Shown: positions 1 through 64,000, counted from the stretch's first letter. The stretch: DNA of 64,000 nucleotides from Escherichia phage SHEFM2K (PQ390715.1), one strand, 5' to 3'. Notes: generated by a model not told the origin, from the sequence alone. A program made the numbers and translations.

Positions 1-10
1 ATATAATAGC

Positions 11-41
11 AAAGGGACTGACCGAAATCAATCCCTTTTTT
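11..41. terminator. Bidirectional intrinsic terminator hairpin (GGGACTGACC-GAAA-TCAATCCC) with flanking T/A runs; copy of the dispersed terminator/promoter cassette
   Basis: GC stem, tetraloop, T-run; same cassette recurs 11 times. Confidence 0.6.
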
Positions 42-49
42 AATCTTTT

Positions 50-634
50 TTATCGTGTTACTTTACTTGCTGCCACATCACGCTTTTTATAGTACTGATT
101 CCAGATATTGCGGGTTAAACCGTAATCAAGTACTTTAATAAGTCCATTACGATCCTGGCCGATATTCTGTTTTCTGATATCTCTTATCGTTAGTGTTGAT
201 AATGTATCATCGACGTGTTGTAGTGCATCAGCAAAGCGGTGCTGGCGTTCAATGGCATTACGTTTAATATTGTACTTTAATTCGTTGCACGCGTTAACGT
301 GCTTCACACTGCCTTTACTTGCAGTACTCAACCGATCCATAACGATAAACATATTATCAGGATCGCATAAATGCATATGCACCTTTGCAAAGTACTGTTT
401 CAATTGAGGGCGGTCATAGTCTAAAAAATTCCATACCTTACATTCAGTTTCATTTTGTTCTACACCCGCATCACAATTGGCGACCTTAATCACTAACCGA
501 TCATTTAAAGCGAATACAATACGGGAAGAACCCGCACCGATGATCTCCAGACCAGCTAACCGACAAGCTGAAAGGATCTCTTTGTTGGTTTCCATTTCTG
601 ACAGGGTACGGATGAATTTAGTATAATTACGCAT
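50..634 (-). CDS. Protein kinase-like mini-protein (195 aa)
   Basis: ORF track trimmed to ATG with SD AAGGAGAA; G-loop/Lys-like IIGAGSSRIVFAL..VIKV, catalytic-loop-like IRDIRKQNIG, DFG-like LDYG. Confidence 0.5.
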   Translation of the reverse strand: MRNYTKFIRTLSEMETNKEILSACRLAGLEIIGAGSSRIVFALNDRLVIKVANCDAGVEQNETECKVWNFLDYDRPQLKQYFAKVHMHLCDPDNMFIVMDRLSTASKGSVKHVNACNELKYNIKRNAIERQHRFADALQHVDDTLSTLTIRDIRKQNIGQDRNGLIKVLDYGLTRNIWNQYYKKRDVAASKVTR

Positions 635-665
635 TGCATGTTCTCCTTGAGTTAATGAAACTATC

Positions 666-908
666 TTACAGTACTTTACTATCAATGGCAACCACTTTTT
701 TCACACTTACAGCGTGAATCACTTCCTTAGTGTTTTTAGTACTGAATACTTTCGCTGTTCCATGTTCTACTGCAATGCGATAACGACCGTTAACATCAAC
801 CATATTAATAAAGTCCGGTGTACTAAACCGAGTAGTACGGCATTTCAGTACTGTTAACAGTTCCACCAGCGATGTAGTTTCTTTGATACGTTTTTCTAAA
901 GTAATCAT
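666..908 (-). CDS. Hypothetical protein (80 aa)
   Basis: ORF track trimmed to ATG after GGGGAAAA SD; upstream part of listed ORF overlaps neighbour. Confidence 0.5.
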   Translation of the reverse strand: MITLEKRIKETTSLVELLTVLKCRTTRFSTPDFINMVDVNGRYRIAVEHGTAKVFSTKNTKEVIHAVSVKKVVAIDSKVL

Positions 909-961
909 TTTGTTTTCCCCGTGTTGGTATGTACATATAGTACTAAAACATTTGAGTACTG

Positions 962-1216
962 TCAACGTGATATTAGTTTTATTTTCTTATTATATTGTTG
1001 GTGTTCATATAGGTTTATCTTTCCTGTGTTCTCAATTACTATTCTGTTGTTAGTGTCTACATCGATTACACGCAGTTTTCCGTTGCTTAACTTCCTTGGT
1101 AATAGGTTACCATTAATAAACTCATTAGCAAGCTGTACGGCCTTTGTGATGATTCTCTGTGGTGCTTTATAGTGTACCCGCAAGATATTATCTTTAGATA
1201 GTTGTACCTTAATCAT
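962..1216 (-). CDS. Hypothetical protein (84 aa)
   Basis: ORF track; ATG with AGGAT SD; terminator hairpin upstream. Confidence 0.55.
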   Translation of the reverse strand: MIKVQLSKDNILRVHYKAPQRIITKAVQLANEFINGNLLPRKLSNGKLRVIDVDTNNRIVIENTGKINLYEHQQYNKKIKLISR

Positions 1217-1230
1217 TTTAGTTTATCCTA

Positions 1231-1256
1231 TAAAAAAGGCGGGAACTGATCCCGCC
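1231..1256 (-). terminator. Intrinsic terminator (GGCGGGAACTGATCCCGCC + T-run on minus strand)
   Basis: Perfect GC-rich hairpin followed by TTTTTT on minus strand. Confidence 0.6.
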
Positions 1257-1278
1257 GTGTTGTTAGTACTGCAAGTTA

Positions 1279-61369: not shown

Positions 61370-61600
61370 TTACATTAATCCTTCTATGCTACAACCAATA
61401 AGTACTTTTTTCACTTCAATAACTCGTACCAAATAGAATCCATTTGAAAAGTTAAAACTATACATTTGTACTAAGGCATCTGCTTCAGATTTCGCACGGA
61501 TACATGATAGATAAATTTCACGTATATCACCATCCAACGATACTTGTTTCTCTGCACTGATGACAATAGAACGAATCTCAAAACGAACGCCATAACTCAT
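61370..61600 (-). CDS. Hypothetical protein (76 aa)
   Basis: ORF track. Confidence 0.5.
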   Translation of the reverse strand: MSYGVRFEIRSIVISAEKQVSLDGDIREIYLSCIRAKSEADALVQMYSFNFSNGFYLVRVIEVKKVLIGCSIEGLM

Positions 61601-61806
61601 TGAGTTTGTCCTACAATAAGCTTTGTGTTAGTATTACTATTGTAACACCACATTTGTTCTTTATTAACTGTAATCCAAATATCTTTGTTTACTTGTTCGT
61701 ATGTACTATCACGTACTGCTATACATTGATTCATGGAATTCATTGGGGTTATTTGTACACCGGAATTAACAGAAAAAGCTATTACTAAAAAGATTACTGA
61801 ATTCAT
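61597..61806 (-). CDS. Small secreted protein (69 aa)
   Basis: ORF track; signal peptide-like N-terminus. Confidence 0.5.
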   Translation of the reverse strand: MNSVIFLVIAFSVNSGVQITPMNSMNQCIAVRDSTYEQVNKDIWITVNKEQMWCYNSNTNTKLIVGQTQ

Positions 61807-61870
61807 TGGATATTCCTTAATGGTTAATCATCCATCTCTTCGAGATGTCTGTTCGCTTCTAATACTACGT

Positions 61871-61899
61871 ATTCTACGCGAATGATTAATAACTGTCAA
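61871..61899 (-). promoter_or_regulatory. Promoter TTGACA-N17-TAGAAT
   Basis: Consensus -35, near-consensus -10. Confidence 0.5.
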
Positions 61900-62425
61900 G
61901 GACTTTTAATATTGACGGGATTTGAGGAAGGGATTTTTCTTCCCCCCCACAAGGAGGGAAATTTGACGCTGATGGTATCAGAGCTATTGCATTGAAGATT
62001 ACTCATAACGAGTGCGAAAGCGGGTCATCCTGTTTCTCTCTACTTCAGTTTCATATGACGGTCTACACTTTTAAACATAGTGTATCTTCATTAAGTATCT
62101 ATGCAATCAAATACTTAATGTGAGTACTCAAATTTTGGACGCAACTTTCCTGTACAAAATTCGATAACTCTCCCTTAGATAATTCGTAAGGTGTTATCCT
62201 TATATGTCTATCAAGGAACCACCAGCTATCCTAACGTGGTTCTTTATACAGCCGCATTGCCGTGAGGGGTTCAAACTATGCCCACATCTAACGGGTTTCT
62301 TTTGCTGTTCGCACTGTCGGACTGCTCAACTGCCCTCTACGTTTTCGAGTGGATCAGGTACATGAATATCATGCCAACAGAATTGTACAAGATAATTATA
62401 TCACAAACTTTTACTTCATCCCATA
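61900..62425. other. ORF-free segment of about 0.5 kb with locally higher GC; candidate structured ncRNA or regulatory region
   Basis: No ORF of 60 aa or more on either strand; composition differs from flanks; sits between the sigma-gene terminator and the next promoter. Confidence 0.3.
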
Positions 62426-62452
62426 AAAAAAGGTTGGCATAAGCCAACCCTT
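62426..62452 (-). terminator. Intrinsic terminator (GGTTGGC-TTAT-GCCAACC + T-run on minus)
   Basis: Hairpin + TTTTTTT. Confidence 0.6.
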
Positions 62453-62457
62453 GTTCT

Positions 62458-63423
62458 TTAGAAATCTTCGTATTCGTACCCTTTTGCAAGTACTAACTTC
62501 TTAAGCTTTTGCATAGCTTCACTGTACTTTCGGTGTATTGATGAACGGGATTTAACATATTTTCCATTATCATCAACAAAACCATTATCAGCAATCTCAC
62601 GAAGCGTTTCAGGTTCATATTCACCTAGACCATGAACACGCTGGATAATCTCACGTTCTTTAGTACTCAATTCGTTAGTTAGTTCATTGATAGCATAACG
62701 TAAAGGTGCACGGATACTATCAACATTGAGGTTAAAATCAGAAGCAGGTGAATGAATAATGTCACCTAATGTACCATCTGTAACACCGTCTAATGGTGCA
62801 TCCAGTGAAGTGTATTCGCTTTGAAATAATAAACAATTATTAACATGCTGAATCTCAATCCCAGTACCCTCTGAGATTATTTCAGGTGTTGGGCGAACAC
62901 CATGTTTACGCATATATTCCTGGCAGAATCTTTTTACTTTGATCTTATGAACACTCATATAACGTGGGAAGTGTACCATATAGTTAGCGTCAGAACTTTC
63001 GTTATAGACTGTCATGTAAATACTAGAAGAAGCATAGGTAATGAACTTAACATTCTTATTAAGATCAAAGGTTTTTAGTGCTCTCATGAACCCCTCAACA
63101 CCATATGAAATCTTATCTTCAAATGGGATATAACAAGTACATTTACTTGCTACATCAATAATCAGTCCATAATTGTAACGAACTAACAGTTCAGTGTTTT
63201 TCTTTACATTGATACCAGCTTGAATATCACGAATTAGATCTTCATTGGAAACATTTGGTGGTCGCTTAAGTGTAATATTATATTTGAAACTGCTTTGTAC
63301 TTTACCTTCATTATCATCTTTATCTTCAACGAAATCTAAGGCTTCTAGTGTGTTGACTTCTTCATTAGCAAAACATTCATCCAGAACTTCTTCGGCAATT
63401 GTATTTAAATCAAGCTTTTTCAC
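62458..63423 (-). CDS. sigma70-family sigma factor (phage-encoded), 321 aa
   Basis: ORF track (probable GTG start with AGGAG SD); region 2-like LVRYNYGLIIDVASK..GVEGFMRALKTFD..KFITYASSSIYM; region 4-like LSTKEREIIQRVHGLGEYEPETLREIA. Confidence 0.65.
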   Translation of the reverse strand: MKKLDLNTIAEEVLDECFANEEVNTLEALDFVEDKDDNEGKVQSSFKYNITLKRPPNVSNEDLIRDIQAGINVKKNTELLVRYNYGLIIDVASKCTCYIPFEDKISYGVEGFMRALKTFDLNKNVKFITYASSSIYMTVYNESSDANYMVHFPRYMSVHKIKVKRFCQEYMRKHGVRPTPEIISEGTGIEIQHVNNCLLFQSEYTSLDAPLDGVTDGTLGDIIHSPASDFNLNVDSIRAPLRYAINELTNELSTKEREIIQRVHGLGEYEPETLREIADNGFVDDNGKYVKSRSSIHRKYSEAMQKLKKLVLAKGYEYEDF

Positions 63424-63444
63424 TTACATCTCCTAATGACGAAA

Positions 63445-63942
63445 TCAAAATCGATATACATTAATATTATCATCTGTGAAGCAATCATGGTTGTGCACAT
63501 CCATGAAAGTACTAAACACTTTATCATATAAAGTTGTATGTTCTTCATGAATAGCAGCATCTAGCATGTATTCTCCACCACTTCCCATAAAGAAAGTGTA
63601 GTCTTCATGTAGATATTCAAGTTTTTTAATAAACTTTCCTTTAGTTAAAATCATATGAATAACATAATCTTTAGAAAGAAGCACACAATGGCAACTTAAC
63701 TTTCTGTCAGGTATAACTGGTACTTTATTAATTAACCAATCCAGTACTTTATCAATTTCACTTACTACCCCACTAGCACTGAATAAACGGTCATGTACAT
63801 ATAAAGTTTTTTGATTAACAACTCCATATTGATATTTTGGTCTTAGTGGGAAAAAACCAAATAAGTTTCGTGGTATAGTTGACGTAACTCTAGAATCGGT
63901 AATCAATAAATTTAATCGTTTATCAATATAAACAGTTGTCAT
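63445..63942 (-). CDS. Hypothetical protein (165 aa)
   Basis: ORF track. Confidence 0.55.
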   Translation of the reverse strand: MTTVYIDKRLNLLITDSRVTSTIPRNLFGFFPLRPKYQYGVVNQKTLYVHDRLFSASGVVSEIDKVLDWLINKVPVIPDRKLSCHCVLLSKDYVIHMILTKGKFIKKLEYLHEDYTFFMGSGGEYMLDAAIHEEHTTLYDKVFSTFMDVHNHDCFTDDNINVYRF

Positions 63943-64000
63943 ATTAAACCTTATCTAAGAATTTATCGTATATATAAAATTCTTTATCGGTGAATACATT

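Follow-up and report, generated by a model that had tools for sequence, protein, structure and literature searches.

The closest described counterpart of the element considered here is HIP1 (GCGATCGC), a palindrome iterated genome-wide in cyanobacteria. The element itself is the palindromic hexamer AGTACT, as it occurs in a stretch of 64,000 nucleotides from Escherichia phage SHEFM2K (PQ390715.1), referred to below as the window. Like HIP1, AGTACT is an exact palindrome in excess of at least an order of magnitude, lies in all reading frames and in intergenic DNA, is common to related genomes, and has a function that is unsettled. HIP1 differs in being an 8-mer of cellular genomes with a methylated core (CGATCG), whereas AGTACT is a viral 6-mer that is not known to be methylated and has fixed positions in promoters.

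Several other systems resemble AGTACT in part. Chi, the sequence that acts on RecBCD, is likewise a dense and short genome mark that distinguishes own from foreign DNA and works by frequent encounter. However, a host enzyme reads Chi on single-stranded DNA, and the sequence is asymmetric and depends on orientation for its effect, whereas AGTACT is palindromic, has symmetric flanks and is rare in the host. The DNA uptake sequences (DUS) of Neisseria and uptake signal sequences (USS) of Haemophilus are also over-represented, evenly spread, tolerated in coding DNA, and found as inverted pairs in terminator stems. They differ in being non-palindromic 9-12-mers that are read by a competence pilus protein, and a lytic phage has no comparable uptake step.

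TF1 of phage SPO1 is an abundant, phage-encoded DNA-binding protein with a preference for phage DNA and for binding at early promoters. It is a functional analogue of the mechanism proposed below, in that it selectively covers or labels the DNA of the phage and acts as a repressor of early transcription. It differs in acting on hydroxymethyluracil-containing DNA through loose sites, with no exact hexamer. The enzyme ScaI (AGT^ACT), of which Eco255I is an E. coli isoschizomer, has the same recognition sequence and the same sharpness. Phages normally avoid restriction targets, whereas AGTACT is enriched 12-fold. Finally, the site of the nucleoid-occlusion factor SlmA, GTGAGTACTCAC, has the same central 6 bp and a dimeric reader (PMC3020112), but the flanks that it requires are absent from the phage sites. 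HIP1 is the closest known kind, but AGTACT is assignable to none of these systems, differing from each in symmetry, length, carrier or reader.

The evidence below suggests that AGTACT could be a dense tag on phage DNA for a clade-specific, twofold-symmetric reader of double-stranded DNA that also modulates early promoters. This reading is tentative and is held with slightly less than even confidence. We found no description of the enrichment in the searchable literature on these phages, which includes papers on CBB, RaK2 and phAPEC6, that on GAP32 lying outside its reach.

Abundance of AGTACT

The window, with a G+C content of 35%, contains 277 copies of AGTACT, or 4.3 per kb. In 100 dinucleotide-preserving shuffles the mean was 22.3 copies (standard deviation 4.3, maximum 31), and Markov models of order 0, 1, 2 and 3 predict 21.8, 22.0, 48 and 106 copies. 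The overall ratio of observed to expected copies is 12.6. Of the 4096 hexamers AGTACT ranks first, and no other palindrome is strongly enriched, the runner-up reaching 2x. As with HIP1, the excess of an exact short palindrome is at least 10-fold.

The maximal-order (order 4) model predicts 223 copies, which is close to the 277 observed. This would fit a functionless by-product of composition, codon or dipeptide preference, amplification of cassettes and paralogues, or mutational or gene-conversion bias, and repeated promoter cassettes and paralogue families do occur in the window. However, the order-4 value owes its height to the 5-mers AGTAC and GTACT, each of which is enriched about 5-fold (387 and 371 observed against about 75 expected), and hence it does not refute the enrichment. 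The lower-order expectations speak against a by-product, as do the contexts of the sites: the 40-nt flanks are unique for 245 of the 277.

A greedy call of open reading frames (ORFs) gave 137 genes covering 84% of the window. Between the genes there are 84 copies against 4.2 expected (20x, 8.2 per kb), and within them 190 against 17.5 (11x, 3.5 per kb), so that the intergenic density is 2.3x the coding density. The preliminary description of this DNA had proposed that AGTACT is strongly over-represented, subject to Markov counts taken separately for coding and intergenic DNA. The excess proves to be window-wide and beyond composition and codon usage, with a ratio far from 1. Its estimate of about 16 copies in the first 3 kb was low, the count being 19.

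Exactness and Flanking Bases

The enrichment is confined to the exact hexamer. Each class of single-mismatch variants lies between 0.4x and 2.05x, compared with 12.6x for AGTACT.

Outside the hexamer, information is confined to the adjoining positions -1 and +6 and amounts to about 0.3 bit. The rule is not-G at -1 and not-C at +6: on the 5' side C makes up 44% and G 8%, and the 3' side is the mirror image. The favoured form is CAGTACTG, with 61 copies against about 0.9 expected (about 68x). That the hexamer usually takes this form, as was first thought, is an overstatement, since both flanks are present in 61 of 277 sites (22%) and at least one in 188 of 277; the preference itself stands. The same preference is found in the window, in RaK2 and in GAP32, which represent three genera, and the left and right flanks are independent of each other.

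An exact hexamer with symmetric and independent flanks points to a twofold-symmetric reader of duplex DNA, as would result from two identical half-site contacts. Sites in coding DNA share the symmetric flanks, and no -10 or -35 hexamer accompanies them at a constant distance.

Effects on Codons and Proteins

Coding sites occur in every frame: 91 as the codon pair AGT ACT, 59 as xxA GTA CTx and 40 as xAG TAC Txx. In this, together with the intergenic copies, AGTACT again behaves as HIP1 does, and its reported presence within coding sequence is confirmed.

Codon usage does not account for these sites. A synonymous shuffle that keeps each protein and the codon usage of each gene gives 58.8 +/- 7.0 copies against 191 observed in coding sequence, a 3.2x excess, and a shuffle of codon order gives 25.7 +/- 4.9. 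Both results count against a by-product. Ser-Thr dipeptides are spelled AGTACT in 91 of 174 cases (52%), where codon usage predicts 27.

The dipeptides are affected as well. Ser-Thr occurs 174 times against 96 expected and Val-Leu 164 times against 101, whereas Thr-Ser and Leu-Val are not over-used. The spread over frames and the over-use of dipeptides therefore indicate a force at the level of DNA, strong enough to reshape proteins. Within genes the sites are uniformly distributed, with no preferred position, and the number of genes that carry none is close to the Poisson expectation.

Selection and Spacing

Conservation of the sites was assessed in the block 35900-64000, of which 28.9 kb were aligned to the phage WPEC3 (84.5% identity), with 121Q as a third genome. 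Sixty-four of 93 sites (69%) are intact in WPEC3, compared with 46% of all hexamers and 50% of the hexamers flanking sites (Fisher p = 0.003). Such conservation above background between related genomes is a further property shared with HIP1. Third codon positions are 86.5% identical within sites and 73.5% outside them, with no such contrast at first and second positions. This selective conservation is not what a by-product predicts.

Individual sites nevertheless turn over. About 30% of them differ between SHEFM2K and WPEC3, and each genome has private sites. When the differences are polarised with 121Q, about 10 recent gains stand against about 11 recent losses. A neutral estimate, taken from the numbers of sites and one-off variants, is about 1 gain per 12 losses. 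Gains equal losses despite this estimate, which implies that site density is actively maintained while single sites come and go. The alignments show sites that are subject to purifying selection and yet turn over. A conversion drive would have depleted the one-off variants, which is not seen.

The sites are also spread slightly more evenly than at random. The coefficient of variation of their spacing is 0.76-0.94 in 6 of 6 regions from three phages, against 0.99 +/- 0.09 for random placement. Long site-free gaps are rarer than expected, and the longest in the early block is 485 bp, where random placement gives a 95% range of 547-1207 bp. Helical phasing or nucleosome-like wrapping is not indicated, as the spacing shows no 8-14-bp periodicity, and the only excess is of pairs 20-24 bp apart. 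These observations point to coverage counting more than position. Selection for density or coverage, in turn, suggests a function for which a reader, or the mark that it leaves, must be present throughout the phage DNA.

Occurrence in Other Phages and in the Host

Comparisons between genomes used the 64-kb window, 30-50-kb pieces of related phages and 1-15-kb loci from IMG/VR. By megablast against phage records, the window is 94-98% identical over most of its length to jumbo coliphages of the Asteriusvirus group (121Q, PBECO4, G17, phAPEC6, E9.1). Among GenBank records, AGTACT is found 119 times against 12 expected (10x) in positions 1-50 kb of RaK2 (Alcyoneusvirus), 253 times against 14 in GAP32 (Mimasvirus), and 132 times against 16 in WPEC3. 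In RaK2 none of these copies lies at the promoter offsets described below. Enrichment of the same hexamer in genera that are alike at the protein level only is difficult to reconcile with a by-product.

The hexamer is also enriched in IMG/VR loci that putatively derive from Pectobacterium phage CBB and Yersinia phage fHe-Yen9-04. These loci were retrieved with a pattern that holds one site, and each contains dozens more. Strongly enriched long-contig loci found in this way lie almost all on contigs of 345-378 kb. A locus on a shorter contig (IMGVR_UViG_3300007747_000009, 108,897 bp; locus L021) has 86 copies in 12.6 kb against 3.9 expected. This contig represents either part of a jumbo-phage genome or a smaller relative that shares the signature.

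No enrichment is seen in the distantly related Pseudomonas phage PA5oct (2 against 7.5 expected) or in rV5 (7 against 7.2), an unrelated large coliphage whose record annotates sigma70-type promoters. The same is true of 50 kb of E. coli K-12, with 3 copies against 4.8 expected, or 0.06 per kb (about 1 per 16 kb). Phage DNA is about 70-fold denser in AGTACT than this sample of host DNA. The signature is a property of one phage clade, not of the host.

Positions in Early Promoters

A scan for pairs of -35 and -10 hexamers found about 60 promoter-like sites in the window, 31 of them with AGTACT. The early promoters have near-consensus -35 and -10 hexamers, spacers of 16-17 bp and UP-like A/T blocks. 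Starts of AGTACT sites in the window promoters peak at -19/-20 (n = 18), -39/-40 (n = 9), -42/-43 (n = 3) and about -62 (n = 3). GAP32, although it belongs to a different genus, shows peaks at -19/-20 (n = 9) and -39 to -41 (n = 13).

Starts at -19/-20 and at -39 to -41 therefore bracket the -35 hexamer on one helix face. They are 20-22 bp apart in both genera, which matches the geometry expected of a putative operator pair, with palindromes flanking the -35 and -10 at whole-turn spacing. Fixed positions of this kind suggest an added role in early transcription. The share of promoter-linked sites is about 15% (about 35-45 of 277).

The promoters take three main forms: AGTACTTGCAA-N14-AGTACTgTATAAT, AGTACTaTTGACA-N10-AGTACTggCATAAT, and cAGTACTgaaaactatttttaaaaAGTACTTGCAA with two sites around an UP-like A/T block. 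Examples are given in Table 1. The architecture of the promoter at 11272-11304 is repeated at 10495/10515, 6873/6893 and 3736/3756, and that of the promoter at 12739-12794 at 6305/6328 and 2631/2655. A near-identical counterpart of 5529-5565 is found at 8386/8408. The location of AGTACT in the spacer just 5' of the -10, proposed in the preliminary description, holds for the AGTACTgTATAAT and AGTACTggCATAAT promoters, where the positions are fixed.

An extended -10 (TG at -15/-14) is present in 6 promoters with a site start at -20, including the AGTACTggCATAAT type. In the 12 promoters with a site start at -19 (AGTACTnTATAAT), the TG, if present, is at -14/-13, as in AGTACTgTATAAT. The extended -10 TGn element is thus matched by AGTACTggCATAAT, whereas AGTACTgTATAAT has its TG one base away from that position. 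We know of no described class of sigma70 promoters with a palindromic hexamer at -19 and -39. The likeness to sigma70 early promoters of the T4, T5 and rrnB P1 type lies in the near-consensus hexamers and the UP elements (compare the CBB paper, PMC5259590). The same paper describes a TGAAACG promoter class for CBB and GAP32. A link to that class was considered and rejected, as the window contains only 2 copies of AGTACTGAAAC and one weak candidate.

Other promoters and leaders in the window are of different construction. Combined cassettes of terminator and promoter, built as GGGTTGACttcgGTCAGCCC-TTTTT-GCTATAAT and with a stem that includes the -35 hexamer, lie at about 2728, 6404, 40190, 41911, 42836, 47834, 50539 and 53963. 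They have near-consensus -35 and -10 hexamers and no AGTACT. A 34-nt core of the cassette is identical in records of Erwinia, Pectobacterium (CBB) and Yersinia phages and of Aeromonas phage 65. We take these cassettes to resemble the mobile promoter-stem-loop ("PeSL") cassettes of T4-type phages. In addition, a conserved G/C-rich hairpin, GGGGAGAAnnnTTCTCCCC and variants of it, is found in the 5' leaders of many early genes just 3' of the -10, for example upstream of 2093, 3408, 5790, 7043 and 10436. No T-run follows this hairpin, which is therefore more likely to be a leader structure than a terminator.

Regional Map and the Non-coding Cluster

The principal features of the window are listed in Table 1.

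Table 1. Coordinates of blocks, promoters and repeats discussed in the text.
Feature	Position	Strand	Details
Early-type small-gene block	1-21250	-	sigma70/UP-element promoters; densest block: 148 sites, coding 5.3 per kb, intergenic 11.2 per kb
RCC1-like paralogue array	21291-35853	+	36 coding sites, 2.6 per kb, about 8x over expectation
Mostly unannotated gene block	35900-64000	-	74 coding sites, 3.0 per kb
Early promoter AGTACTaTTGACAatgattgatAGTACTggCATAAT	5529-5565	-	sites 5560-5565 and 5538-5543 bracket the -35; TG of the downstream site is the canonical extended -10
Early promoter with two sites, AGTACTtgcaattagtttttAGTACTgTATAAT	11272-11304	-	11299-11304 (start -39, abuts -35 TTGCAA); 11279-11284 (start -19, abuts -10)
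Early promoter cAGTACTgaaaactatttttaaaaAGTACTTGCAA...cgTATAAT	12739-12794	-	UP-like A/T block between sites 12789-12794 (about -62) and 12766-12771 (-39)
Largely non-coding stretch of about 2 kb	14438-16383		21 sites, including 13 of the 61 CAGTACTG of the window
Tandem repeat, 4 copies, 13-bp period, AGTACTGAATAAT (minus-strand reading)	14510-14554		seen in the sequence
Terminator hairpin in RCC1 array, motif-built stem GCCAGTActtgaTACTGGC followed by T-rich tail	22407-22425	+	seen in the sequence

The largely non-coding stretch stands out for its sites, most of which have the extended form (A)TTCAGTACTGAA(T). It also contains iteron-like repeats (GACGGCTAAA, GGATGGCT, GGGGAACTATCTTTC and TGATTAC), especially at about 15240-15345. 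The homologous stretch of GAP32 (locus L002, 2400-4400) has the same iterons and 11-12 sites per kb, so that an iteron-bearing non-coding stretch is conserved between Asteriusvirus and Mimasvirus. By its sequence, the stretch may be a nucleation centre, a replication origin or another cis-acting centre. Searches for Rfam families and tRNAs across the window, this stretch included, found none. For a comparison of binding to the extended form, TTCAGTTCTGAA is proposed as the counterpart duplex to TTCAGTACTGAA.

Two further locations named in the preliminary description are correct: AGTACT is present in the 13-bp tandem units near 14510, and in the terminator hairpins of the RCC1 array, for example gccAGTACTtgatactggc at 22407-22425. 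Similar hairpins with stems built from the motif lie near 23658, 28487, 29743-29755 and 36511-36530.

The third block includes genes for a few virion structural proteins, a protein kinase, endonuclease V and homing endonucleases. One gene of this block, at 40225-41649 on the minus strand, is similar to homing/HNH endonucleases, has 25% G+C, and contains a single AGTACT in 1.4 kb. It would fit a recently acquired mobile gene that is still without the genome signature.

In the early block, the GC skew flips at about 16 kb from -0.1 to +0.15-0.2 (about 16000-21200), though the called ORFs remain on the minus strand. This skew is unlike that of other minus-strand blocks. The ORFs of the segment encode about 20 paralogous small proteins of about 60 aa with the form MN..HKEFY...LIYRY. 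Further minus-strand ORFs of the early region encode a ParE-like toxin (962-1216), a GNAT acetyltransferase (3760-4116) and a DksA/TraR C4 zinc finger (4180-4437).

A Proposed Tag for a Phage DNA Reader

In the proposed mechanism, the reader of AGTACT would most likely be a homodimeric DNA-binding protein encoded by the phage and particular to RaK2-like jumbo phages of Enterobacterales. Selection would hold one site per about 150-400 bp in the phage DNA examined, which extrapolates to about 1,000-1,500 sites in a genome of about 350-380 kb. Because the hexamer is dense on phage DNA and occurs about once per 16 kb on host DNA, such a tag would concentrate the reader on phage DNA. Occupancy of the promoter sites around the -35 hexamer would alter the binding of RNA polymerase, and the simplest outcome would be a shut-off of early transcription once the reader accumulates. 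To the observed enrichment, exactness, symmetry, selection, clade conservation, promoter positions and contrast with the host, the mechanism adds three things that we infer: a protein dimer as the reader, a phage gene for it, and the outcome of binding.

Candidates for the reader were sought among the proteins of the window. Pfam matches in its ORFs are limited to a sigma70-family factor, a DksA/TraR zinc finger, GNAT, ParE-like, endonuclease V, AAA and RCC1; matches to Serglycin were discarded as spurious, arising from the GS linkers of the polyproteins used as queries. The sigma70-family factor, at 62458-63423 on the minus strand, has regions 2, 3 and 4, and its 321 codons begin with GTG and are intact. 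The one candidate that was followed up is the early ORF at 9169-9651 (minus strand), which has homologues in RaK2, in Yersinia phage loci and in two further IMG/VR loci. It is predicted to consist of a coiled coil or long helix followed by a C-terminal beta-beta-alpha unit, with weak similarity to the C-terminal domain of H-NS (BLASTP E = 0.028) and a weak match to KfrA_N.

Several points weigh against a dimeric reader that coats the DNA. The Pfam scan, run on concatenated polyproteins that held essentially all window ORFs, found no DNA-binding domain except that of the sigma factor, and neither Pfam nor PHROGs detected helix-turn-helix, ribbon-helix-helix or zinc-ribbon DNA binders in these ORFs. 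PHROGs, searched with 10 polyproteins covering most window ORFs, returned almost only "unknown function". Ten genes of 121Q from the neighbourhood of the sigma factor, just beyond the window, yielded nothing but the sigma factor. For the ORF at 9169-9651 there was no sequence match in the PDB, and its AlphaFold2 model (predicted local distance difference test, pLDDT, 69) had no Foldseek match at E < 1. No homologue of TF1 or HU was found in the window by Pfam.

The nature of the site raises difficulties of its own. Transcription factors usually have longer, degenerate sites, and a sharp 6-bp palindrome whose flanks carry almost no information is sooner expected of a restriction or modification enzyme. 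A protein tightly bound every 230 bp in genes would be expected to hinder transcription and replication. The effect on promoters could run either way, repression or activation. Lastly, the evidence base consists of the window together with the pieces and loci of relatives described above.

A wider form of the proposal is that AGTACT serves as a "barcode" of self. In jumbo phages that lack hypermodified bases, a phage factor would use it to tell phage from host DNA, so that the phage's own DNA is spared, transcribed or replicated and the host's is shut off or degraded. This reader would also set the time of early-promoter shut-off. This is possible but rather doubtful. Of the functions suggested in the preliminary description, binding and modification form the best class of explanation for the hexamer. 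Nothing supports a packaging function: helical phasing is lacking, and headful packaging is reported for a relative (PMC7247149).

Alternative Explanations

The alternative that survives best is a phage-encoded modifying or cutting enzyme, such as a methyltransferase or nickase, that targets AGTACT. The mark itself would identify phage DNA or serve repair, replication or protection. We regard this as unlikely, though by no means far-fetched. The exact 6-bp palindrome with its near-featureless flanks is what type II restriction-modification enzymes recognise. Relatives are reported to encode N6-adenine and C5-cytosine methyltransferases, and RaK2 DNA behaves like methylated DNA in digests (PMC3622015 and PMC7247149). 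HIP1, the closest genome-wide iterated palindrome, has a methylated core (PMC6604393).

Further support comes from the avoidance of other palindromes. About 20 G/C-ended 6-bp palindromes have no copies at all in the window, against a summed expectation of about 100; they include GGTACC, CCATGG, TGGCCA, GCATGC, CTGCAG, CAGCTG, GGATCC, GTCGAC, GAGCTC and CTCGAG. Their complete absence indicates that ordinary restriction pressure acts on this DNA, whereas AGTACT departs from expectation in the opposite direction, 12.6x upward. Counter-selection relative to a host restriction system run in reverse, which the preliminary description also offered, specifies no mechanism. For such a phage, carrying more than 1,000 ScaI-type sites unprotected would be a liability.

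However, an enzyme target accounts for the lack of avoidance and not by itself for the enrichment. A drive by repair of the very-short-patch (Vsr) type was rejected, because the deamination product AGTATT/AATACT is not depleted (1.32x). C-to-T changes account for only 1 of about 12 single-step differences among lost sites, a weak argument against 5-methylcytosine at this position. In RaK2, the one site reported as methylated contains CpG (PMC3622015), and no methyltransferase was found in the window by Pfam.

A second alternative is that AGTACT is read by a machine that tracks along DNA, as an attenuator of a Chi-like helicase-nuclease, a priming site, or a signal to elongating RNA polymerase, the palindrome serving both directions. 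The even spread, the scarcity of long gaps and the absence of phasing are as seen for Chi, for uptake sequences and for GATC sites read by MutH. At about 70 times the host density, the hexamer would let a nuclease spare phage DNA without modified bases. The explanation is nonetheless improbable. Chi, FtsK-orienting polar sequences (KOPS), primase sites and the ops element are asymmetric and read on a single strand, whereas AGTACT belongs to the mere 64 palindromes among 4096 hexamers and has symmetric flanks as well, both of which favour a symmetric reader of duplex DNA. Primases read trinucleotides, for which no enrichment is needed, and the fixed positions upstream of promoters are left unaccounted for.

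The phage does appear to use Chi itself, which also favours a tracking signal. The E. coli Chi sequence (GCTGGTGG) is present in 10 copies against about 0.6 expected from order-1 composition: at 863, 2663, 3581, 5043, 9032, 15494, 45188 and 62219 on the minus strand (CCACCAGC), and at 15506 and 21507 on the plus strand (GCTGGTGG). Two of these form an inverted pair, CCACCAGCttgtGCTGGTGG, at 15494-15513 within the non-coding stretch 14438-16383. The abundance suggests that the phage may exploit RecBCD-Chi protection. AGTACT itself has neither the asymmetry nor the orientation bias of a Chi-like class, being a palindrome with symmetric flanks.

A third alternative takes AGTACT to be an element of early promoters or operators, recognised by RNA polymerase, a phage sigma factor or an early regulator, with the coding copies as decoys, internal promoters or hitch-hikers. 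In its favour are the fixed positions at -19/-20 and -39 to -41 in about 26 early promoters, common to GAP32, the canonical extended -10 formed by the TG of AGTACTggCATAAT, the 2.3x excess of intergenic over coding density with the early block densest, and the sigma70-family factor encoded in the window. As the main account, which is how the preliminary description had framed the hexamer, it is quite improbable. About 85% of the sites lie outside promoters, and the 50 kb of RaK2 have no promoter-linked sites and are still enriched 10x. Coding sites have symmetric flanks and no -10 or -35 at a fixed distance, the site-free "PeSL"-type promoters are near-consensus at both hexamers, and the TG of AGTACTgTATAAT is at -14/-13 instead of -15/-14.

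A fourth alternative is a reader from the host. A protein of Enterobacterales such as SlmA would recognise AGTACT, and the phage would exploit it, for example to block division. The enriched phages all infect Enterobacterales, whereas the Pseudomonas relative PA5oct is not enriched, and the 12-bp SlmA site GTGAGTACTCAC has AGTACT at its centre (PMC3020112). However, the three positions 5' of AGTACT must be G, T and a purine for SlmA to bind (PMC3020112), whereas phage sites favour C at -1 and have G there in only 8%. The window contains 0 full SlmA sites, and half-site flanks occur in 7 of 554 cases, which is about chance. Membership in the SlmA class, GT(A/G)AG(C/T)(A/G)CT(C/T)AC, is therefore ruled out by the flanks and the absence of full matches. 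Neither rV5 nor the E. coli chromosome is enriched. No other host factor is known to us to have specificity for AGTACT, and overall a host reader is very improbable. LexA boxes formed from neighbouring sites were also rejected, as these need an 18-bp spacing and no excess is seen at 18 bp.

Finally, a functionless by-product, to which we give hardly any probability, is largely refuted by the tests above, a biased-repair drive of another type keeping a slight probability on the evidence of sequence.

Implications

The density of AGTACT would provide a simple signature for members of the clade in metagenomes. Strong resistance to these phages is to be expected of any host with a ScaI-type restriction system, protection of the sites aside. 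In phage engineering and therapy, the proposed tag would mean that DNA which is recoded or inserted and lacks sites could behave unlike the rest.

The proposal would also provide a handle on how jumbo phages with unmodified DNA separate phage from host DNA, in the form of a 6-bp site, a cluster of extended sites within a conserved non-coding stretch, and promoters whose sites have fixed positions. It would imply that the many unannotated genes of these genomes include one for an abundant and novel activity that binds or modifies DNA. The barcode form of the proposal, if true, would be a virus-encoded counterpart of marking by Chi or DUS, and an alternative to base modification for distinguishing self from non-self. 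On the main reading, a group of the largest enterobacterial phages would mark their DNA by sequence and not by chemistry, under a pressure strong enough to distort codon choice and dipeptides in the window.

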